From NCBI GenBank assembly GCA_036406615.1, contig DASXAQ010000103.1, forward strand, positions 71,202-135,201: a stretch of 64,000 nt of DNA. Direction: 5' to 3'. The notes under the pieces are model-generated. The model ran no database searches, was not told the DNA's origin, and saw only the letters and a list, made by a program, of their open reading frames with translations. Position 1 is the first letter of the stretch. Each line of letters begins with the position of its first letter. The DNA is from Actinomycetota bacterium. Its GTDB lineage: Bacteria; Actinomycetota; UBA4738. A program made the translations under genes and the position numbers. Of the stretch, positions 32,080-42,946 are shown in pieces.

Positions 32080-33729
32080 CTAGAGCGGGATGTTGCCGTG
32101 CTTGCGAGAGGGGCCAGCCTCCCGCTTCGACAGCAGCATGCGAAGCGAGCGCACCAGCCGCGACCGGGTCTCGGCCGGCTCGATCACGTCGTCGACGAAC
32201 CCGCGCTCGGCGGCGATGTACGGGTTGCCGAACTGCTCCTCGTAGTCCGCGATCAGCTCGCGCCGCTTCGCGTCCGGGCTCTCGGCGCCCTGGATCTCGC
32301 GGCGGAAGATGACGTTCACGGCGCCCTCCGAGCCCATCACGGCGATCTCGGCCGTCGGCCACGCCAGGTTCACGTCCGAGCGCAGGTGTTTCGAGTTCAT
32401 GACCACGTACGCGCCCCCGTACGCCTTGCGCGTGATGACAGTCATCTTCGGGACGGTCGCCTCGCTGAACGCGTACAGCAGCTTCGCGCCGCGCCGGATG
32501 ATGCCGCCGTACTCCTGCGCGGTGCCGGGCAGGAACCCCGGCACGTCCTCGAACGCGATCAGCGGGACGTTGAACGCGTCGCAGAAGCGGATGAACCTGG
32601 CCGCCTTCTCGCTGGACTCGTAGTCCAGCGTGCCGGCCAGCACCTTGGGCTGGTTCGCCACGATGCCCACCGGGTGGCCGTCGAGGCGCGCGAACCCGAT
32701 CAGGATGTTCATGGCCCACAGGGGGAAGACCTCGTAGAACTCGCCGCCGTCGAAGATCCGGCGGATGACGTCCTTCATGTCGTACGGCTCGCGCGCGGAG
32801 TCCGGGACGATGTCGTTCAGCGCGTCGTCGCGGCGGTCGGGGTCGTCGGTCGGTGCGAACCGCGGCGGGTCCTCCAGGTTGTTCGACGGTAGGAACGACA
32901 GCAGGTAGCGGATCTGCGCCAGGCAGTTCGCCTCGTCGTCGGCGACGAAGCTGGCCATCCCCGAGCGCGTCGCGTGCGTCATCGCGCCGCCGAGCTCCTC
33001 GAACGTCACGTCCTCCCCGGTCACCGCCTTGATCACGTCGGGGCCGGTGATGAACATGTACGACGTGCCCTTCACCATGTAGACGAAGTCGGTGATGGCG
33101 GGGGAGTACACGGCTCCGCCGGCGCATGGGCCCATGATCACCGAGATCTGCGGGATCACGCCCGACGCGCGCACGTTGCGGTCGAACACGTCGCCGTAGC
33201 CGCCGAGCGACGCGACGCCCTCCTGGATGCGGGCGCCGCCCGAGTCGTTGATGCCGACGATCGGCGCGCCGGTCTCCATGGCCAGGTCCTGAATCTTCGA
33301 GATCTTCCCCGCCTGGATCTCGCCGAGGGATCCGCCGAAGACCGTGAAGTCCTGGCTGTAGACGAACACCTTCCGCCCGTCGATCGTGCCCCAGCCGGTG
33401 ACGACGCCGTCGCCGAAGGGCCGCACGCGGTCCAGGCCGTAGGTCCCGTAGCGATGGCGCGCGAGGGCGTCCATCTCGACGAACGATCCCTCGTCCACCA
33501 GCAGGTCGATGCGCTCGCGCGCGGTGAGCTTGCCGCGGGCGTGCTGGCGGTCGATCGCCTCGGCGCCGCCCCCCAGGCCGGCCTCCTCGCGCTGGCGTCT
33601 CAGGTAGTCGATGCGCTGGCGGACCGAGGCCTGGCCGGACGGCGACGGTTGCGCCGCAACGTCGTCGCCGACCGTCATGTCGTCTGGCTCGTCCTCGGCC
33701 GTGTCGCGTTCCTGCTTGGTATCGGCCAT
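32080..33729 (-). CDS. accD: Acyl-CoA carboxylase carboxyltransferase (beta) subunit, propionyl-CoA carboxylase-like
   Basis: Full carboxyltransferase N and C domains ([26 protein letters not shown]). 549 aa. Confidence 0.9.
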
Positions 33730-33809: not shown

Positions 33810-34754
33810 ATGTCTCCGCTCACCTCCGTTCAGGCACATACCTTGCGGGAGCTCATGGGCGTGGGCGCGATCCCGGCCCACGATCAGGGCCTGATCCGCG
33901 AGGCCCGCGTTCGCCTCGATTCGGCGCTCGACGGAATCCTGCCGGCGGGGCCGGCCGAGCCGCTGTGGCTGTCGAAGGGTGCCCTGACCGACGCGCAGCG
34001 GTGCGAGGGCCTGTTCGCCGCCAGGCTCGGCGGCGAAGGGCCGGCGTTCGTGCACTCCGAGCGGTCGGCCGCCGGATCGCTGTTCCACCGCTGCATCGAG
34101 GTCGACGTGGGCAGCCGCGGCCGCGCCGACGTCTGGGAGGTCGCGACCCGGGCGGCCGAGCGGCTGGCTCGCGACGACCGGGCGTTCGCTGCCCACTGGC
34201 ATGCGACGGACGAGCTGGACCGCTCGGGACTGCTGGCCGACGCAGCGCGCAACGTGGAGCTGTTCCGGGCGTCGTTCCCGCCGCTCGGCCCGGGCGGGCA
34301 TGCCGTGCCGCTGCCGGAGCTCCGGCTGCGCGCGCCGGTCGCCGGCGGCCGCGTGGTGCTGACCGGGCGCGTCGACCTCCTGCTGGTGCTCGCGTCCGAG
34401 GCGTCCGGCGTGGAGCCGAACCGGCTGGCGATCGACCTGAAGTCGGGCGCCGCACATCCGGAGCACGCCGAGGACATGCGCCTCTACGCGCTGTTGATTG
34501 GCCTTCGCTACGGGACGCCGCCGGTCCGCGTCGCGACGGTGTTCCTGGAGTCGGGCCAGTGGCAGTCCGAGGACGTGACCGAGCGAACGCTCGGCCGCGC
34601 CGTGGATCGCGTGGTGGAGGCGGCCGCGGCGTGGGCGCGTCTGTCCGGCGTGGGCGCCGCCCCCGAGCTGCGGCCGGGGCCGCACTGCGGCTGGTGCCCG
34701 AGGCGCGCCGGGTGTCCCGCCGCTGAGGCGGCGGCGGTTGTGGCAGCGACGTGA
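33810..34754 (+). CDS. PD-(D/E)xK nuclease superfamily protein, Cas4/RecB-like with 4-Cys Fe-S motif
   Basis: Motif III IDLKSG (D-x-K). An N-terminal Cys plus C-terminal CGWCPRRAGC (C-x2-C-x5-C), typical of Cas4/AddB-type iron-staple nucleases. 314 aa. Confidence 0.6.
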   Translation: MSPLTSVQAHTLRELMGVGAIPAHDQGLIREARVRLDSALDGILPAGPAEPLWLSKGALTDAQRCEGLFAARLGGEGPAFVHSERSAAGSLFHRCIEVDVGSRGRADVWEVATRAAERLARDDRAFAAHWHATDELDRSGLLADAARNVELFRASFPPLGPGGHAVPLPELRLRAPVAGGRVVLTGRVDLLLVLASEASGVEPNRLAIDLKSGAAHPEHAEDMRLYALLIGLRYGTPPVRVATVFLESGQWQSEDVTERTLGRAVDRVVEAAAAWARLSGVGAAPELRPGPHCGWCPRRAGCPAAEAAAVVAAT

Positions 34755-34773: not shown

Positions 34774-35574
34774 TCACGAGATGACGGTCACCACCAGCCG
34801 GCCGGCCAGCAGGGCGGTCACGTTCAGCGCCGCGTGGGCGATGATCGGCGCCACGACCGAGTTCGCCCGGAGGCGAAGCCACGCGAACCCCACGCCGGCC
34901 GCCGAGGTGGCGGCCACGGTGCCGATGACGGCGCCGGTCGTTCGAAGCGCGCTGCCTTCGACCAACGCGCCGGCCGGGTTCAGGTGCAGCGTGTCCAACG
35001 TCGGGAACACGTGCCAGAGGCCGAACAGCAGCGAACTCACGACGACGGCGGACAGCGGCGTTCGGCGCCGCAGCAGCATCCCGAGCATGGCGCCGCGGAA
35101 GATGACCTCCTCGCACACGGCCGTCCCGAGCGGGATCCGAACCAACGCGTCGTAGACGACCGTGCCGGCCCCGAGGCCGATCACGCGCTGGTCCGCGAAG
35201 TAGCGCCGGGACGCCGGCACGGCGACCCCGAGCGCGACGACCGCGGCGATGGGTGCGGCGGCAGCGAGTCCGACCCGCAGACCGCGCCCCGCGCGGTCCG
35301 GCCGCAGGCCCATGTCCGTCCACGTCGCGCCGGTCCCGCGCCCGAGCGCGATGAAGGCGGCGGCCGCGGCGGCGTTGCCGGGGATGTACCAGGAGTCGGG
35401 GATGACGCGGTTGACGATCCAGCTGTAGGCCAGCGTCAGCGCGCCGGCGATCTCGAGCCCGCCCCACAGCGGATGCGCCGCGGGCCGGTCGCGCCAGTGG
35501 CGCCGGCGCCAGAGCTCGTCGGTCCGTTGGAGCGAACGGCCGCTGCCCTCGGCCCGGGCGGCCGAAGCGCTCAC
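34774..35574 (-). CDS. CPBP-family intramembrane metalloprotease (CAAX protease / bacteriocin-processing family)
   Basis: Motifs EEVIFRG, FGLWH and HAALN in successive TM helices. The GTG start at 35574 overlaps the upstream TGA stop (GTGA). 266 aa. Confidence 0.7.
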   Translation of the reverse strand: MSASAARAEGSGRSLQRTDELWRRRHWRDRPAAHPLWGGLEIAGALTLAYSWIVNRVIPDSWYIPGNAAAAAAFIALGRGTGATWTDMGLRPDRAGRGLRVGLAAAAPIAAVVALGVAVPASRRYFADQRVIGLGAGTVVYDALVRIPLGTAVCEEVIFRGAMLGMLLRRRTPLSAVVVSSLLFGLWHVFPTLDTLHLNPAGALVEGSALRTTGAVIGTVAATSAAGVGFAWLRLRANSVVAPIIAHAALNVTALLAGRLVVTVIS

Positions 35575-37616
35575 CCGGCATCCGGGGCCGGCACGTCTTC
35601 GGGCTCGCCCGCGGCTTCCGCTTCGCCGTCGACCGAGGGCGCCTCCGCCGGCGGCTGCGCGGCCTTGGTGCGGCTGCGGCTCTCCGCCTTGCGCGGGCGC
35701 CCGCGACGGGCCTTCGTCTCCTTCTTCTTGGCGTGCGCGTCGAGCAGCGCCTTGCGCTCGAGCTCGTTGGCGCGCAGCGCGCTCTCGACGGACGCGAGCT
35801 GTTCGTCGCTGGCGTCCAGCGAGTAGACCTCGCGCACGAACGTGGCCAGGTCCTTGCGATAGTCGTGGCCCTTCGCCTCGAACTGCCCTGGGATGACGTT
35901 CGCCGAGTTCTTCATGTCGATGAGGGTCTGCACGAACGTCGTGGGGCTGCGCCACTGCTCGGCCTTCGGCACGGTGGCCGCGCGCGCGGCGGCCGGCCCC
36001 AGCCAGTCGGGCGCGCGCGCGAGCAGGTCCAGCCCGAAGTGGGCCACACCGTCGTCGTCGTGGGTGATCATCACGTAGCGGAGCTTGCTTCGGGCCTCGG
36101 GGCCCAGGGCCTCGAGCTGCGCGAAGTCGTTGAACCTGCCGACCAGAGACCGGTCGACGTCGGCGCGTTCGCCTCTCAGCACCTGCTCCTTCCACTTGCT
36201 CATGTACGGCGAGCCGATCCACAGCGCCCGGTCGACACCGGCGTCGCGAAGCCCCTGCGTGCCGCGATGCTCGAACGCGTCCTGGCTCGTCCAGGCCCCC
36301 AGGCTCTCGCCGAAGAGCACCACGCGCGGCCGCTTGCCGGGCGGGCGTTCGGCGAGCGCGTTGTGGATGGCGTCGATCAGCATCCGGTACTGGTGCCGGC
36401 CCTCGTCGACGCGGTCCAGCGACAGCGGCGACGGCCGAAGGGAGTACTGCATGGTAACCGACGCCATGTTGCCGCGCGTGAAGTACTCGGCGGCCTCGAC
36501 CGCGACGTAGTTCACGTAGCCCGTGCCGGTGGGGGAGACGACCATCAGTAGCTCGCGGTCGAACGCGCCGGTTCGCTCCAGCTCCTTGATGGCCAGGTCG
36601 CGGCGCTCCAGCTCCGTCGGCGCGCTGCCCAGCCCGACGAAGACGCGGATGGGCTCCGCGACGGCCGGCTCGCCCATCACGTGCTCGATCAGCTCGGGGG
36701 TCAACGCCGTGGAGACGTTGCGCCGGCCCTGACGGCTGAGTGAGTCCCACGCGACCAGGCTCCCCGGCCCGCCGCTCACGAGCGACGACGTGGGGACGGC
36801 GGCGAACGCTTCCTCGATGGTCTCGGCTGCGTGTTCGATCTTGCGGTCGAAGCGCCGGATCAGTTCGTACAGCCCAGCGCCGATGGCCGTCAGCGCGACC
36901 GCGTGGCCGACCGGGCGGTACTGCCGCTCGGGGCCCGCCAGCGCCTTGGATAGCACGCGGCCCACGCCGGTGGCGAACCAGCGCTCACCGGTGGCGGCCA
37001 GGTTCAGCCCGACGGCCACACCGACCCCCATGCCGAATGACTTGGCCGCGGCCGCCTTCGAGTCCTCGCTGGCGTACTCGCCCGAGTCCGCCGCCTCCCA
37101 GCGCCGGCGCCGGTACTCGTTGACCGCCGCCAGGGCCGGACCGGCGAACAGGGAGACCGGGAACGACGCGTCGGCCCGGTCGCTTCGGCGCGTGATCACC
37201 TCCTGCATCACGCCGACCACGGTCCCGGCCACCCCGGTAGCCGTGAGCCACCATGCCGCGGTCCGGGCGACGCCGCGGGGCAGGCGCTCGCCGGGGCGCT
37301 GCTCGAGCGCCCGCTGGCCCGCGATGCCCGCGGCGATGGCGGCCAGGTCGAGGGCGATGCTCGCGCGCCGCCACGTGTGGCGGTCCGCCGACTCGGCCGT
37401 CGCGAACCGAAGGGCGACAGCCTCGATCGAGTCCTGGATCAGCGCGGCGAACCCGTAGTTGAGCGCGGTCGAGATGCCGGTCACCAGCGCCTGGTCGAGC
37501 GTGCTGCGAGGCATCAGGGTCGGCTGGAACGTGATCGGCATGACGGTGGCCGCCACGAGCGTTCCCGCCTGCTGTGTCCTGCCGCCGACCCCCGCGTTGG
37601 GCGATGGCCTGGTCAT
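35571..37616 (-). CDS. Membrane-anchored alpha/beta-hydrolase family protein (Abhydrolase_9/DUF2319-like) with basic AT-hook-like C-terminal tail
   Basis: N-terminal polytopic domain and a C-terminal domain with the GESLGA nucleophile elbow. The tail is ...KKKETKARRGRPRKAESRSRTK plus an acidic end. ATG at codon 106 of the track ORF, preceded by a G-rich SD. Confidence 0.6.
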   Translation of the reverse strand: MTRPSPNAGVGGRTQQAGTLVAATVMPITFQPTLMPRSTLDQALVTGISTALNYGFAALIQDSIEAVALRFATAESADRHTWRRASIALDLAAIAAGIAGQRALEQRPGERLPRGVARTAAWWLTATGVAGTVVGVMQEVITRRSDRADASFPVSLFAGPALAAVNEYRRRRWEAADSGEYASEDSKAAAAKSFGMGVGVAVGLNLAATGERWFATGVGRVLSKALAGPERQYRPVGHAVALTAIGAGLYELIRRFDRKIEHAAETIEEAFAAVPTSSLVSGGPGSLVAWDSLSRQGRRNVSTALTPELIEHVMGEPAVAEPIRVFVGLGSAPTELERRDLAIKELERTGAFDRELLMVVSPTGTGYVNYVAVEAAEYFTRGNMASVTMQYSLRPSPLSLDRVDEGRHQYRMLIDAIHNALAERPPGKRPRVVLFGESLGAWTSQDAFEHRGTQGLRDAGVDRALWIGSPYMSKWKEQVLRGERADVDRSLVGRFNDFAQLEALGPEARSKLRYVMITHDDDGVAHFGLDLLARAPDWLGPAAARAATVPKAEQWRSPTTFVQTLIDMKNSANVIPGQFEAKGHDYRKDLATFVREVYSLDASDEQLASVESALRANELERKALLDAHAKKKETKARRGRPRKAESRSRTKAAQPPAEAPSVDGEAEAAGEPEDVPAPDAG

Positions 37617-37808
37617 GGTCCCCCCGTCGTTTCGGTCTTCGGTCCCGCGATCCTGGACGGGTCGCGATGGCTCGCGCTTCACCCCATCGGCGTGAAACGG
37701 GCGCCACCCGCGAAGGCTATCCTCGGGCGGGTGAGTGGGGCGAATCGGCAAGCGGAGCCCGGGAGCGGATCCTCCGGCGTGAGGCTGTCCGTGCCCGCGT
37801 CGTTCGAC

Positions 37809-39239
37809 ATGCCGGCGTTCGACCTCTCGGAGTCCGTGGCCATCCGGCAGGAGGAGCCCGAGCGCTTCCAGGTCGTGTTCCTCGACACCGACGACCTGCG
37901 CCTGGCGCGATGGGGCGCGAGCCTGCGGCACCGGAGCGGTGCCGGGTGGACGGCGTCGCTGCCGGCCGCAGAGGGACGCGCGCCGCTCGCCGCCGGCCGG
38001 TACGACTACCCGGATGCGACGAACGCGCCGCCGCCCGCGGCCGTGGACCTGCTGCGTGGGTTCGCGCGTTCCGAGCCGCTGAAGCCCGTCGCCAGGCTGC
38101 GGACGCAGCGCCGGCGCGTCGAGGCGCGAAACGGGGACGACGCGTCGGCGGAACTGGTCGACGATGAGGTGTCGGTGCTGTCGGGGCGTCGGATCGCGGC
38201 CCGGTACCGGCGCCTCAGCCTGTTCGCGCCGGCCGGGGCGGGCCGCGACCTGATGGGGGCGATGGAGGCGGAGCTACGCGCGGCCGGCGCCGGTCCCGGC
38301 GATCCCACGCCCGACCACGTGGCGGCGCTCGGCCCGCGGGCGACGGGCCCGCCGGACGTCGTGTCGCCGGAGCTTCCACCCGATCCTACGGCGGCCGACC
38401 TCGTTCGCGCCGCGATGGCCTCCGCCGTGACGCTGCTGATCTGCCATCACGCCGCCGTGGTGGTTGGGGAGGACCCGGAGGGCGTGCATCAGGCGCGGAT
38501 CGCGAGCCGAAAGGTTCGCTCCACGCTGCGCACGTTCGCCGCTGTACTCGATCCCGAGTGGACCGAATCCTTGCGCGAAGAGGTCGGCTGGCTCGGCGGG
38601 GTGCTCGGGGACGCGCGAGACGCGGACGTCCTGTCGGCGCGCCTGCGCGAGCGGGCCCCGATGCTCGCGGAGGGCTCGGCCGGGCTCGACGCGCTTCTGG
38701 AGGCCGCGGAGTCGGCGCGTTCGGACGCGCGATCGGCCATGCTCCTGCAGTACCGCGGGCCGCGATACGCGGTGCTGCTCGACCGGCTGGTGGAGGCCGC
38801 GCGGGAGCCGGCGTTCGTTCCGGTCGCCGGCGATCCGGCGAGCTCGCTGGTGCCCGGCCTTCGCGAGCAGTGGCGCGCGGTTCGCCGCGCGGGCAAAGCG
38901 GCCCGCCAGGCGGGCACCGACGACGACCTGCACGAGCTGCGCATCCTGGCGAAGCGCTGCCGCTACTCGGCCGAGTCGCTCGCCCCGGTGGGAGGCAAGC
39001 GCGCCAGGTCCTTCGCCGCGGCCGCGGGGCGTCTGCAGGCCGTGCTCGGCGAACACAACGACGCGGTCACCGCACAGCGGTGGCTGCGGGAGTGGTCGTC
39101 GGGGAGGTCGTCCGCGGCGGAGGCGTTCACGGCCGGCGAGATGGCCGGCATCGAACGCGGCGTCGCCGCGGCCGCCCGCGATCGATGGCACAAGGCGTGG
39201 CGCGCGCTGGCCGAGCGCGACCCCGCCGACTGGCGCTGA
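37809..39239 (+). CDS. CYTH + CHAD domain protein (polyphosphate-granule-associated type)
   Basis: CHAD repeats with conserved His/Arg (HQARIASRKVRSTLRTF, LHELRILAKRCRYSAE) and an N-terminal CYTH-like region. ATG at codon 145; alternative GTG 37779. Confidence 0.65.
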   Translation: MPAFDLSESVAIRQEEPERFQVVFLDTDDLRLARWGASLRHRSGAGWTASLPAAEGRAPLAAGRYDYPDATNAPPPAAVDLLRGFARSEPLKPVARLRTQRRRVEARNGDDASAELVDDEVSVLSGRRIAARYRRLSLFAPAGAGRDLMGAMEAELRAAGAGPGDPTPDHVAALGPRATGPPDVVSPELPPDPTAADLVRAAMASAVTLLICHHAAVVVGEDPEGVHQARIASRKVRSTLRTFAAVLDPEWTESLREEVGWLGGVLGDARDADVLSARLRERAPMLAEGSAGLDALLEAAESARSDARSAMLLQYRGPRYAVLLDRLVEAAREPAFVPVAGDPASSLVPGLREQWRAVRRAGKAARQAGTDDDLHELRILAKRCRYSAESLAPVGGKRARSFAAAAGRLQAVLGEHNDAVTAQRWLREWSSGRSSAAEAFTAGEMAGIERGVAAAARDRWHKAWRALAERDPADWR

Positions 39240-40533: not shown

Positions 40534-40570
40534 ACTCGCTCCACGTCTCGTCGTCGTGGAAGGAGCGCTG

Positions 40571-42946
40571 GTGAGCGAAGGTGCGATGGCGATGGAATCG
40601 CGCGAGTCCGAAGAGGATCTCGACGCGCCACGCCACTGGGAAGGCACCGAATGGCGGCAGGGTTCCATCCTCGGCCATCCGGTGCGACGCACCGAGGATC
40701 CGCGGTTCCTGCGAGGCGAGGCTCTGTATACGGAGGACCTCCCCGCCGACGGGGCGCTGTGGGCAGCGTTCGTTCGCTCGCCGCTGCCGCACGCGAAGGT
40801 CCTGAGCGTCGAGACGGCCGACGCGACCGCGATGCCGGGCGTCGCGGGCGTCTGGACGGCGTCGGACCTCGCGCTTCCCGACATCAAGCCGGACGGCGAC
40901 GCGCCCGAGTTCACGGCACGGCCCATCCTGGCGACGGATCGCGTGCGGTTCGCCGGCGAGCCGGTGGCCGTCGTGCTGGCGCAGACACGCGCGCAGGCGG
41001 ACGACGCGGCGGAGGCGGTGTTCGTGGACTACGGGGCGCTTCCTACCGTCGTCGATCCCATGGCGGCGCTGGAAACCGGTGCGCCGCAACTGTTCGACGG
41101 GCTCGGTTCCAACGTGATCGTGGAGCACGAGCCGGAGGACGACCCGCGCGCGCTCGATGACGCCGAGGTGATCGTCAAGGGCCGGTTCGTCAACCCGCGC
41201 GTGGCGCCGGTGCCGATGGAGCCGAACGGCGCGCTGGCGGTGCCGGATCCCGAGACCGGCGGACTGACCGCGTGGATCCCGTGTCAGGCGCCGTTCTGGG
41301 TCCGGAAGGACCTGGCGCGATCGCTCGGGCTCGAGCGTGAGCAGGTGCGCGTGATCGCGCCGGCCGTGGGCGGCGGGTTCGGCGCGAAGGTGGGCACGTA
41401 TCCGGAGCAGACCGTCGTGGCCGCGCTCGCGATGCGGCTCGGCCAGCCGGTGCGCTACGTGGAAAGCCGCTCCGAGAACATGGTCTCGATGACCCACGGC
41501 CGCGACCAGATCCAGGAGGTGGAGCTCGGCGCGACGCGCGACGGCATCCTGACCGGGCTGCGCGTGCGCGTGATCGCCGACACGGGCGCCTACCCCTTCG
41601 GCGGAGTGTACCTGCCGGAGCTCACGAAGATGATGGCGTGCGGTGTGTACCGCATCCCGCGCGTCGACTTCCATTCGTTCTGCGTCGCGACGAACAAGAC
41701 CCCTACCGACGCGTATCGTGGCGCCGGTCGCCCCGAGGCCGCCGCGATGATCGAACGGGCGATGGACCTGCTGGCGGTGGAGCTCCAGATGGATCCGGCG
41801 GAGCTTCGACGCAAGAATTTCATTCCGCCGCAGGACTTTCCGCTGGAGACGGTGACGGGTGGCAAGTACGACGTCGGCGAGTACGAGCGCGCCATGGACG
41901 AGGCGCTGCGCCTTGCGGACTACGAGACGCTGCGCCGCGAGCAGCGCGAGCGCCGGCAGCGCGGCGACCGGGTGCAGCTCGGCATCGGGCTGAGCACCTA
42001 CGTCGAGGTGACGGGGTTCGGGTCGGAGTTCGGCGCGGTCGAGGTGCACGAGGACGCGACCGCAACCGTGCGGACCGGGATCTCCCCGCACGGGCAGGGC
42101 CACGAGACCGCGCTCGCGCAGCTGGTCGAAGGGGTGCTCGGCATCCCGATGGCGAACGTGACCGTGCTGCACTCGGACACGAGCAAGGTGCCGAAGGGAG
42201 ACGGCACGATGGGATCGCGCTCGCTGCAGGTCGGCGGCAGCGCGGTGTGGACCGCCAGCCGAACGGTGCTGGACAAGGCGAAGCGCATCGCGGGGCACCT
42301 GCTGGAAGCCAGCCCAGACGACGTCGAGCTGTCCGACGACGGCCGGTTCCAGGTCGTCGGCGCGCCCGACACGGCCATCGGCTGGCCGGCCGTGGCGAAG
42401 GCGGCGGCCGACGGCGTCCGGCTTCCCGACGGGCTGGAGATGGACCTGGCCGCCGAAGGGGACTTCGACGCCGGCGGCACCACGTTCCCGTTCGGCGCGC
42501 ACGTGGCGGTCGCTGAGGTCGACACGGAGACCGGCGACGTGCGGTTGGTGCGGCTGGTGGCCATCGACGACTGCGGGCGCATCCTCAACCCGATGCTCGT
42601 CGAAGGGCAGGTGCACGGCGGCCTCGCTCAGGGCTCGGCGCAGGCGCTCTACGAGGGCGTCGAATACGACCCGGACGGCAACCCGCTGTCCGGCAGCCTG
42701 CTGACGTACGGCTTCCCCAGCGCGGCCGAGCTTCCGTCGTTCGAGACCGCGCACACCGAGACTCCGACGCACATGAATCCATTGGGCGCCAAGGGGATCG
42801 GGGAGTCCGGCACGATCGGGTCGACTCCAGCGGTCCAGAACGCGGCCGTCGACGCGGTGGCGCACCTCGGCGTGAAGCACATCGACATGCCGCTCACGCC
42901 CGAGCGGGTCTGGCGGGCCATCCGGGACGCGCGCACCGGCGGCTGA
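40571..42946 (+). CDS. Molybdopterin-dependent xanthine dehydrogenase-family large subunit (form II CoxL-like, AYRGAGR motif)
   Basis: Aldehyde oxidase/xanthine dehydrogenase MoCo-binding domains and the TDAYRGAGRPEA motif. SD GGAAGGAG (40558-40565) before the GTG at 40571. No adjacent medium or small subunit genes. Confidence 0.8.
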   Translation: MSEGAMAMESRESEEDLDAPRHWEGTEWRQGSILGHPVRRTEDPRFLRGEALYTEDLPADGALWAAFVRSPLPHAKVLSVETADATAMPGVAGVWTASDLALPDIKPDGDAPEFTARPILATDRVRFAGEPVAVVLAQTRAQADDAAEAVFVDYGALPTVVDPMAALETGAPQLFDGLGSNVIVEHEPEDDPRALDDAEVIVKGRFVNPRVAPVPMEPNGALAVPDPETGGLTAWIPCQAPFWVRKDLARSLGLEREQVRVIAPAVGGGFGAKVGTYPEQTVVAALAMRLGQPVRYVESRSENMVSMTHGRDQIQEVELGATRDGILTGLRVRVIADTGAYPFGGVYLPELTKMMACGVYRIPRVDFHSFCVATNKTPTDAYRGAGRPEAAAMIERAMDLLAVELQMDPAELRRKNFIPPQDFPLETVTGGKYDVGEYERAMDEALRLADYETLRREQRERRQRGDRVQLGIGLSTYVEVTGFGSEFGAVEVHEDATATVRTGISPHGQGHETALAQLVEGVLGIPMANVTVLHSDTSKVPKGDGTMGSRSLQVGGSAVWTASRTVLDKAKRIAGHLLEASPDDVELSDDGRFQVVGAPDTAIGWPAVAKAAADGVRLPDGLEMDLAAEGDFDAGGTTFPFGAHVAVAEVDTETGDVRLVRLVAIDDCGRILNPMLVEGQVHGGLAQGSAQALYEGVEYDPDGNPLSGSLLTYGFPSAAELPSFETAHTETPTHMNPLGAKGIGESGTIGSTPAVQNAAVDAVAHLGVKHIDMPLTPERVWRAIRDARTGG

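Follow-up and report, generated by a model that had tools for sequence, protein, structure and literature searches.

The window analyzed here, 64,000 nucleotides (nt) of an Actinomycetota genome assembly (UBA4738 lineage; GCA_036406615.1, contig DASXAQ010000103.1) with a G+C content of 71%, carries on its minus strand two overlapping genes, one for a membrane protein with an α/β-hydrolase domain of the Abhydrolase_9 family and one for an Rce1-like protein of the CPBP family. Both genes are ordinary members of known, uncharacterized families; what stands out is the neighborhood they form, in which Abhydrolase_9 and CPBP genes adjoin each other independently of orientation. This pairing exceeds chance and, given that the neighborhood is kept across phyla, the hydrolase and the CPBP protein probably work together. 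Based on the linkage and on the catalytic residues of both proteins, we propose that the two-gene operon encodes a membrane enzyme module that acts on a lipid-anchored substrate, a reading to which we assign a probability of roughly 55%. The pair is laid out as follows.

35571..37616, minus strand: gene 1, hydrolase, 681 amino acids, ATG at 37616, TGA stop at 35573-35571
34774..35574, minus strand: gene 2, CPBP, 266 amino acids, GTG start
35571..35574, minus strand: GTGA overlap, in which the CPBP GTG start shares 4 nt with the hydrolase TGA stop, read directly

These boundaries agree with those of two public proteins of 681 residues (P0001) and 266 residues (P0121), which are 100% identical to the hydrolase and to the CPBP protein, respectively, and ACGGGGGGACC precedes the hydrolase start codon at 37616. 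A CYTH-CHAD gene, which probably starts at the ATG at 37809, diverges 5′ of the hydrolase, and a PD-(D/E)XK nuclease gene lies 3′ of CPBP in convergent orientation, the two stop codons being 19 nt apart. Because the gene upstream is divergent and the gene downstream convergent, the pair is a self-contained two-gene unit. The first-pass annotation, made from the sequence alone, had described such a minus-strand module and its TGA/GTG overlap, which indeed reads GTGA at 35574-35571; its assignment of the 681-residue product to a membrane protein with an α/β-hydrolase domain and a GESLG elbow, and of the 266-residue product to a CPBP protein with EEVIFR, FGLWH, and HAALN motifs, likewise agrees with the open reading frames (ORFs), Pfam matches, and motifs described below.

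Conservation of the hydrolase-CPBP neighborhood

One genome per species (Genome Taxonomy Database) was scanned with a 19-sequence hydrolase alignment. Among 561 relatives, the best 80 loci (40-81% identity) were used; they come from metagenome-assembled genomes (MAGs) of Actinomycetota, Acidimicrobiia, Chloroflexota, Saccharibacteria, Babeliales, and Bifidobacteriaceae and from cultured Actinoplanes, Intrasporangium, and Longivirga. A hidden Markov model built from CPBP homologs and run against the six-frame ORFs of these loci detected an orthologous CPBP gene within 3 kb of the hydrolase at 51 of the 80 (53-367 bits), and the remaining 29 show nothing above 9 bits. Downstream DNA is missing from three of these 29, and neither an unfiltered hmmsearch nor a motif scan found a divergent CPBP in any of them. 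The linked loci span Actinomycetota, Chloroflexota, Saccharibacteria, and Babeliales, so that the adjacent pair noted in the first-pass annotation is co-conserved well outside the window. DUF6325 (about 16 loci) and LPG_synthase_TM (about 10 loci) are the next commonest neighbors, and no other neighbor reaches even one third of the frequency of CPBP.

Proximity is conserved and co-translation is not, because four relative orientations occur. At the 51 linked loci, CPBP is in tandem downstream of the hydrolase at 27, convergent at 17 (with overlapping 3′ ends at six), divergent upstream at five, and in tandem upstream at two, separated from the hydrolase by about 26-45 nt. In a neighbor-joining tree of the hydrolase, orientation is clade-coherent: the window's own clade, Chloroflexota, Saccharibacteria, and Babeliales are tandem, one clade of Actinomycetes and one of Acidimicrobiia are convergent, and divergent pairs are found elsewhere, among them that of the cultured Longivirga aurantiaca CGMCC 4.7317 (L071). 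Because orientation follows clade, several rearrangements must have taken place with adjacency preserved, and apart from the pair itself the flanking genes are unrelated between clades.

These orientations also bear on the earlier claim that the two proteins are co-translated in fixed stoichiometry. The 4-nt overlap on which that claim was based is real and recurs as NTGA at 14 of 30 tandem loci (27 genome loci, L002, L003, and the window; 12 of 27 if the genome loci are taken alone), the others having gaps of 2-44 nt. However, the pair is convergent or divergent at 22 of the 51 linked loci, and coupled translation is therefore a local arrangement and not a conserved property; as a general statement, the claim was too strong.

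We consider it improbable that the two proteins have independent functions and that their adjacency merely reflects inherited synteny or genomic hitchhiking. Such an explanation would accommodate the 29 of 80 hydrolase loci without CPBP, the presence of some CPBP relatives in other contexts, and the overlap itself, which is commonplace, a 4-nt overlap being the commonest overlap class in bacteria. It would not readily account for an adjacency that outlasts at least four changes of relative orientation and extends over all of the groups named above while the surrounding genes differ completely, or for the low frequency of every other neighbor.

A reciprocal metagenome scan with a CPBP alignment found the hydrolase at 28 of 56 evaluable loci, directly upstream in tandem at 27 of the 28. 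These 28 comprise all evaluable loci with a CPBP at least 50% identical to the query, except L123, and the CPBP homologs P0130 and P0238 also adjoin a hydrolase. The linkage is strong, yet not absolute for either family.

The tandem pair is found in many MAGs of Saccharibacteria, a group of the candidate phyla radiation (CPR), and in one Babeliales MAG (L024, L030, L035-L037, L041, L045, L047, L051, L055, and L058), which are low in GC and have gaps of 2-44 nt and no overlaps. Its presence in these reduced genomes suggests either transfer to or from Actinomycetota or an old origin. Saccharibacteria depend, as far as is known, on host lipids, and enzymes of membrane-lipid remodeling are of special interest in them for that reason.

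The CPBP protein and its start codon

Bacterial CPBP proteins are numerous and mostly orphan. The product of gene 2 matches the Rce1-like family PF02517 in Pfam with 67.1 bits (cut-off 22.4), and its AlphaFold2 (AF2) model has a mean predicted local distance difference test score (pLDDT) of 93.6. Four sequence features are relevant to its function and to its start.

35095..35112, minus strand: motif 1, E155-E156-x-x-x-R160 (EEVIFR, residues 155-160); E155, E156, and R160 invariant in 46 homologs
35011..35025, minus strand: motif 2, F184-G-L-W-H188; F184, G185, and H188 invariant in 46 homologs
34822..34836, minus strand: motif 3, H247-A-A-L-N251; H247 invariant and N251 at least 90% conserved in 46 homologs
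35482..35520, minus strand: Trp/Arg-rich N-terminal motif DELWRRRHWRDRP; DDLWRRxxWRRxP in homologs of 66-76% identity

The protein thus carries all three motifs that mark the family, EExxxR, FxxxH, and HxxxN, and they are also intact in the linked CPBPs of other phyla. Among the ORF pieces of related loci, 49 of 55 have them intact, the exceptions being split or truncated ORFs and L009.

The best curated NCBIfam model for the protein is that of the Rv0804 family CPBP (Rv0804_CPBP, NF050068), whose profile covers nearly its full length and which also gives the top curated score for linked CPBPs from four phyla. The scores are 85.6 bits for gene 2 and 45-72 bits for linked CPBPs from Mycobacteriales, Saccharibacteria, Chloroflexota, and another actinobacterial MAG, against an equivalog cut-off of 200 bits. 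Because 45-86 bits is far under this cut-off, the protein falls in a sister subfamily of the Rv0804 family and is not a member of it; judged by these profile scores, gene 2 belongs to a separate subfamily for which there is no curated model. We found no functional work on Rv0804 in the literature, nor on Rv1069c, which was left out of account. A myxosortase-type identity (MrtX, MrtS, or MrtJ) was rejected, since the Mrt models give 17-38 bits against cut-offs of 75-250.

The coupling of the two genes in the window depends on the GTG being the true start of CPBP, and an internal ATG (MGLRPD, residue 88) had been raised as the alternative. The stretch from about residue 19 to residue 80, made up of DELWRRRHWRDRP and the two helices after it, is conserved among homologs 257-259 residues long, which start 10-15 residues ahead of DDLWRRxxWRRxP, and the alignment to the Rv0804_CPBP profile begins at residue 43. 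Because homologs conserve this N-terminal region upstream of the internal Met, a start at residue 88 is excluded. Apart from the overlapping GTG, moreover, no canonical in-frame start precedes the conserved motif until candidates at -385 nt or beyond are reached, and the GTG start first assigned to the gene is upheld by the homolog N-termini and the profile.

The membrane serine hydrolase

Gene 1 encodes an ordinary Abhydrolase_9 member, with an architecture that, by its domain matches, is no different from that of the family. It matches PF10081 (Abhydrolase_9) over residues 323-602 with 217.1 bits (cut-off 26; E 3.5e-64) and, N-terminal of this, PF15420 (Abhydrolase_9_N) over residues 186-303 with 61.1 bits (cut-off 27). 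The family is sizable: when 1.84 billion cluster representatives were searched exhaustively, 1,919 of its clusters (50% identity) had E <= 1e-3. Conservation was assessed in a set of 55 diverse full-length relatives (down to 27% identity) and in the 19-sequence alignment, the latter of which was also used for the AF2 model (pLDDT 90.6, predicted TM-score 0.89).

36822..37616, minus strand: N-terminal helical membrane domain, residues 1-265, seven predicted helices
35811..36650, minus strand: α/β-hydrolase catalytic domain, residues 323-602
36297..36311, minus strand: predicted nucleophile elbow G436-E-S438-L-G440 (GESLG, residues 436-440), from conservation and model
36051..36053, minus strand: putative catalytic Asp522, invariant in both alignments, after strand 514-517 of the model
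35865..35867, minus strand: putative catalytic His584 of the GHDYR motif, invariant

The model contains seven N-terminal helices (13-30, 39-71, 79-103, 112-144, 154-178, 184-226, and 230-265), a compact α/β domain, a long helix (604-639), and a low-confidence tail. Among solved structures, those of cutinases, esterases, lipases, and LysB are nearest to it in fold, and the modeled catalytic domain has a minimal α/β fold of the cutinase/lipase type. The predicted elbow is placed between strand 431-437 and helix 439-446; within it, all 55 homologs share G436, L439, and G440, and S438 is kept in at least 90% of them and in every member of the 19-sequence set. In the GHDYR motif, H584 and Y586 are invariant, and D585 and R587 are at least 90% conserved. 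Ser438, Asp522, and His584 thus constitute a conserved putative triad, in the canonical α/β-hydrolase order relative to the strands of the model. The protein contains no cysteine in its 681 residues. No part of the membrane domain is more conserved than the loop between helices 1 and 2 (F30, L34, R37, D41, and Q42), which is invariant in 19 relatives.

The cores of the seven helices are of low hydropathy (0.7-1.5), and the number of true membrane spans is uncertain for that reason; a Kyte-Doolittle scan of the hydrolase returned no spans at normal thresholds. Counts of lysine plus arginine (12.4 versus 8.2; low-GC homologs, 55 sequences) show a weak bias toward a cytoplasmic N terminus (N-in) with the catalytic domain outside.

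A search of the PDB by sequence found no relative of either the hydrolase or the CPBP protein, and a search of the literature on Abhydrolase_9/DUF2319/PF10081 found no experimental work, tested activity, or solved structure. Where they are cited in PMC11878206, Abhydrolase_9/DUF2319 proteins are ‘transmembrane lipases’ predicted in silico only. The gene 1 product is laid out as these are: the helical membrane domain comes first, and after it a minimal α/β hydrolase with Ser (in GxSxG), Asp, and His. In the Abhydrolase_9 papers that we found, the conserved CPBP neighbor goes unmentioned.

The C-terminal tail

The hydrolase ends in a tail that had attracted attention as a possible AT-hook on a membrane enzyme.

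35574..35735, minus strand: C-terminal tail, residues 628-681, variable and predicted to be disordered, with a basic first half and an acidic, Pro-rich end
35694..35705, minus strand: R638-G-R-P641, AT-hook-like core, read in the sequence, conserved in no intact homolog

The tail reads KKKETKARRGRPRK...PAPDAG, and pLDDT declines from 66 to 29 across residues 641-681. ARRGRPRKAE (residues 636-645) fits an AT-hook core with basic flanks, and to that extent the first reading was correct. The string is not conserved, however: in a set of 120 close homologs, RGRP is confined to the query, and within the last 80 residues of 270 homologs it occurs only in the query (P0001) and in a frameshifted homolog (P0117). 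The nearest homolog (P0002, 83% identical) has ARGRRRK and no RGRP; the tails of other close homologs are Lys/Ala/Glu-rich, Ser-rich, or missing, and cannot be aligned. At the 80 genome loci, tail length varies between 0 and 104 residues, compositions are unrelated, and RGRP is never present. The six-frame translation of the window holds 50 RGRP strings, and the motif is therefore not beyond chance. The Pfam AT_hook model matches neither the full protein nor, at E <= 10, the isolated tail.

That the tail is a functional AT-hook tethering the membrane hydrolase to AT-rich DNA is, in our judgment, hardly credible. Besides the fit of ARRGRPRKAE, such a role could draw on the Lys/Arg-rich tails that recur in a few near relatives (L004, L008, L009, L046, and L049). 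Against it stand not only the lack of conservation, the negative Pfam search, and the abundance of RGRP expected from composition, but also the position of RGRP at the end of the predicted long helix and not in an extended segment; if the weakly favored topology is correct, the tail would moreover be extracellular. The sequence comparisons indicate that RGRP arose by accident in one lineage, within a tail that varies, is probably disordered, and has no conserved role. The AT-hook thus fails the condition that the first-pass annotation had itself set, conservation of the tail in orthologs, and can be discarded as a misleading lead.

In Acidimicrobiia-type hydrolases (L014, L020-L023, L027, L028, L034, L043, and L048), the basic tail is replaced by a different C-terminal extension of about 50 residues, HGATGKSLAATVIERAL...GGGASIP, that is mutually conserved.

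The same region bears on a different account of the pairing, in which CPBP is a maturation or regulatory protease and the hydrolase is its substrate, cut in the tail or in the linker after the last membrane helix, the latter of which would release the catalytic domain. The pair would then be an enzyme and its substrate, not a joint machine. The tight adjacency is compatible with this, as are the invariant CPBP motifs, which set the protein apart from the scaffold-type proteins LnsB and SpdC (see below), and proven CPBP proteases are known, such as MroQ (PMC13559823) and the myxosortases (PMC11980579). However, the length of the tail (median 19 versus 34 residues, p = 0.76) and its composition are unrelated to CPBP adjacency and the tail is missing from many linked hydrolases, so it is not a conserved CPBP substrate. 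No conserved cleavage-type motif was identified, and the absence of cysteine and of a C-terminal hydrophobic helix of the kind that serves as a myxosortase-type sorting signal led us to reject the hydrolase as a substrate of that type. We regard this account as rather unlikely.

A proposed membrane enzyme module

Adjacency across phyla whatever the orientation, and the retention of catalytic residues by both proteins, are the observations from which our proposal starts. We propose that the hydrolase and the CPBP protein form, or behave as, one module at the membrane surface that would act on a lipid-anchored substrate. In such a module, the serine hydrolase would carry out ester or acyl chemistry. 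In Rce1 and SpdC, the CPBP fold encloses an intramembrane cavity that opens to the bilayer, and we suggest that a corresponding cavity in the gene 2 product would bind and present the lipid-anchored part of the substrate. Because its EExxxR/FxxxH/HxxxN residues are invariant, CPBP probably cleaves a peptide bond as well. In this organism, the GTGA overlap would give co-transcription and probably coupled translation of the two proteins, as one of the four arrangements in which the pair occurs.

Several observations weigh against this proposal. About 36% of the hydrolase loci have no adjacent CPBP, including one whole clade of Actinomycetes. A CPBP branch of 41-48% identity is found between an upstream gene for a β-eliminating lyase and a downstream ABC (ATP-binding cassette) exporter pair, and in one clade CPBP follows a BrkB/YihY (PF03631) gene instead (L001 2700-3954, minus strand; L087 4013-5723). 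With hydrolase loci that lack CPBP and CPBPs in other contexts, the partnership is not obligatory for either family. The sidedness of the module is also insecure: the seven-span, N-in topology with the catalytic domain outside is weakly favored, as it rests on a weak charge bias in the sequences, and a metagenomic ORF of 489 residues (P0340; contig of 2153 nt), in which a linker of about 35 residues connects the C-terminal half of a hydrolase with an entire CPBP, would put the catalytic domain on the opposite side, although this fusion is a single case and the closest relatives of P0340 do not share it. Finally, the CPBP motifs, invariant here, are degenerate or dispensable in LnsB and SpdC, so that the analogy to scaffolds may be the wrong half of the picture.

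A bolder extension of the proposal, which we offer as doubtful but worth stating, is a widespread two-enzyme pathway in which a catalytically active CPBP protease and a serine hydrolase (or acyltransferase) of the membrane would work in succession on the same lipid-modified substrate, be it a peptide, a protein, or an envelope precursor. If it existed, this pathway would operate in monoderm bacteria and in reduced-genome relatives (Saccharibacteria, Babeliales), would parallel in bacteria the CAAX-type processing of eukaryotes, in which proteolysis beside a lipidated residue is combined with ester chemistry, and would represent a new tailoring route for a lipoprotein, lipopeptide, or envelope lipid.

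Genomic surroundings of the pair

37617..37808, no strand: divergent intergenic region, presumed promoter of the pair, about 190 bp from the hydrolase ATG to the CYTH-CHAD ATG
33810-34754, plus strand: PD-(D/E)XK nuclease family protein (PF12705), 314 amino acids, Cas4/AddB-like
about 37809-39239, plus strand: two-domain CYTH and CHAD protein of a polyphosphate- or triphosphate-associated family
32080-33729, minus strand: acyl-CoA carboxylase carboxyltransferase subunit
about 39.3-40.5 kb, plus strand: crotonyl-CoA reductase-like enzyme of the zinc-dependent alcohol dehydrogenase (zinc-ADH) family
40556-42946, plus strand: molybdopterin hydroxylase large subunit

A scan of 37617..37808 for a consensus sigma-70 promoter gave no match, which is uninformative in a 71%-GC actinobacterium, as is the promoter/terminator scan. 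The nuclease at 33810-34754 has a C-terminal Cys cluster (HCGWCPRRAGC) and no NCBIfam match. The flanks of the pair in the window are core metabolism and are unconnected to the pair in related loci.

This setting offers little to the suggestion, made in the first-pass annotation, of an immunity-like device, which we consider very improbable. As a toxin/immunity or bacteriocin-type pair, the hydrolase would be a self-damaging enzyme (e.g., a phospholipase) from which an ‘Abi’-type CPBP protects the cell, or the CPBP would process an exported peptide. CPBP/Abi proteins are known bacteriocin immunity factors, and one CPBP branch does adjoin ABC exporters. However, PADLOC matches neither protein, and the window locus, with its core metabolic neighbors, holds no gene for a peptide precursor, an exporter, or a mobile element. 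The hydrolase, moreover, is not a secreted toxin: it is a polytopic membrane protein, and across clades it shows vertical coherence.

The exporter-associated CPBP branch (L099, L105, L118, L126-L134, and L146-L165) has ABC_membrane and ABC_tran genes beside it and no Abhydrolase_9 within 4 kb. Its synteny, mutually conserved, accounts for most of the 28 metagenome loci without hydrolase, and these loci are probably one lineage sampled repeatedly. At L001, the hydrolase is 4.6 kb from CPBP, and the CPBP match falls in two frames and runs into the BrkB gene as called, a pattern that points to a frameshift in the long-read assembly.

In the window's own clade, a gene for PF03706 (LPG_synthase_TM, MprF-flippase-like) usually lies directly 5′ of the hydrolase (L002 6809-7885, L003 3333-5874, L004 4768-5940, and L084 1754-2848; also L007-L009, L046, L049, and L050). 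A tblastn search for it in the window was negative. This recurrent neighbor may hint at a membrane-lipid theme. A small DUF6325 protein (PF19850), absent from the window, is encoded 0-3 kb from the hydrolase at about 16 of the 80 loci, with or without CPBP (L001 7323-7907, L024 4017-4502, L053 5145-5618, L081 3099-3611, and about 12 more).

Some apparent features of these loci were set aside. The fusion ORF P0340, probably the product of a frameshift or of some rare event, was not used as Rosetta-stone evidence; no further fused cluster turned up in a search dedicated to them, and relatives of 84-88% identity are unfused. A second ORF (P0377, 246 residues) is a hydrolase/CPBP chimera with an internal deletion, again a singleton and possibly a frameshift or assembly artifact. 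An ‘Ion_trans_2’ neighbor cluster (32 loci) proved to be an artifact that consists mostly of antisense shadow ORFs inside the hydrolase gene, tied to a few real channel genes through single-linkage clustering, and the neighbor clusters ‘unk347’ and ‘unk160’ are shadow ORFs too.

Comparison with known CPBP systems

To our knowledge, protein prenylation is not known in bacteria, and the substrate of the gene 2 product must for this reason differ from that of Rce1. The type II CAAX prenyl protease MmRce1 (PDB 4CAD) is the best Foldseek match of the CPBP model in the PDB (probability 0.97) and has the same three catalytic motifs, although the identity is only 13-16%, the TM-score 0.43-0.50, and E 0.17.

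Two systems of Staphylococcus aureus are closer to the pair as a whole. LnsA, an NlpC/P60 enzyme, requires the CPBP protein LnsB for lipoprotein N-acylation from phosphatidylglycerol (PMC13559823). Like the pair described here as we propose it to work, LnsA-LnsB combines a membrane-associated enzyme of a hydrolase fold with a polytopic CPBP partner on a lipid-anchored substrate, and uses a phospholipid acyl chain. LnsA, however, is a Cys-His enzyme and is not polytopic, whereas the gene 1 product is a polytopic α/β hydrolase with a predicted catalytic Ser; the lnsA and lnsB genes are not adjacent, and the CPBP motifs of LnsB have degenerated and are dispensable. In the second system, SpdC serves the glucosaminidase SagB as a scaffold on peptidoglycan that is linked to lipid (bioRxiv 10.1101/2020.05.21.109470). 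Here too a membrane-anchored hydrolase is partnered with a CAAX-protease-like protein, an eight-helix scaffold that possibly binds the lipid carrier of the substrate. The differences lie in the chemistry: SagB is a glucosaminidase and the catalytic residue of SpdC is dispensable, whereas gene 1 encodes an esterase/lipase-like serine enzyme and the gene 2 product looks, from its motifs, catalytically competent. The LnsA-LnsB paper names two further cases, SpbR, which regulates the signal peptidase SpsB, and MroQ, which is a true protease (PMC13559823).

Our search of the literature found no description of a neighborhood of this kind between a CPBP and a hydrolase gene. By analogy, the Abhydrolase_9-CPBP neighborhood fits an emerging pattern of CPBP-partnered membrane enzymes, in which LnsAB, SagB-SpdC, and SpbR-SpsB are recent cases of obligate CPBP partners of enzymes that build or tailor the envelope. 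Through its conservation in so many settings, the pairing provides a concrete, testable hypothesis for two orphan families.

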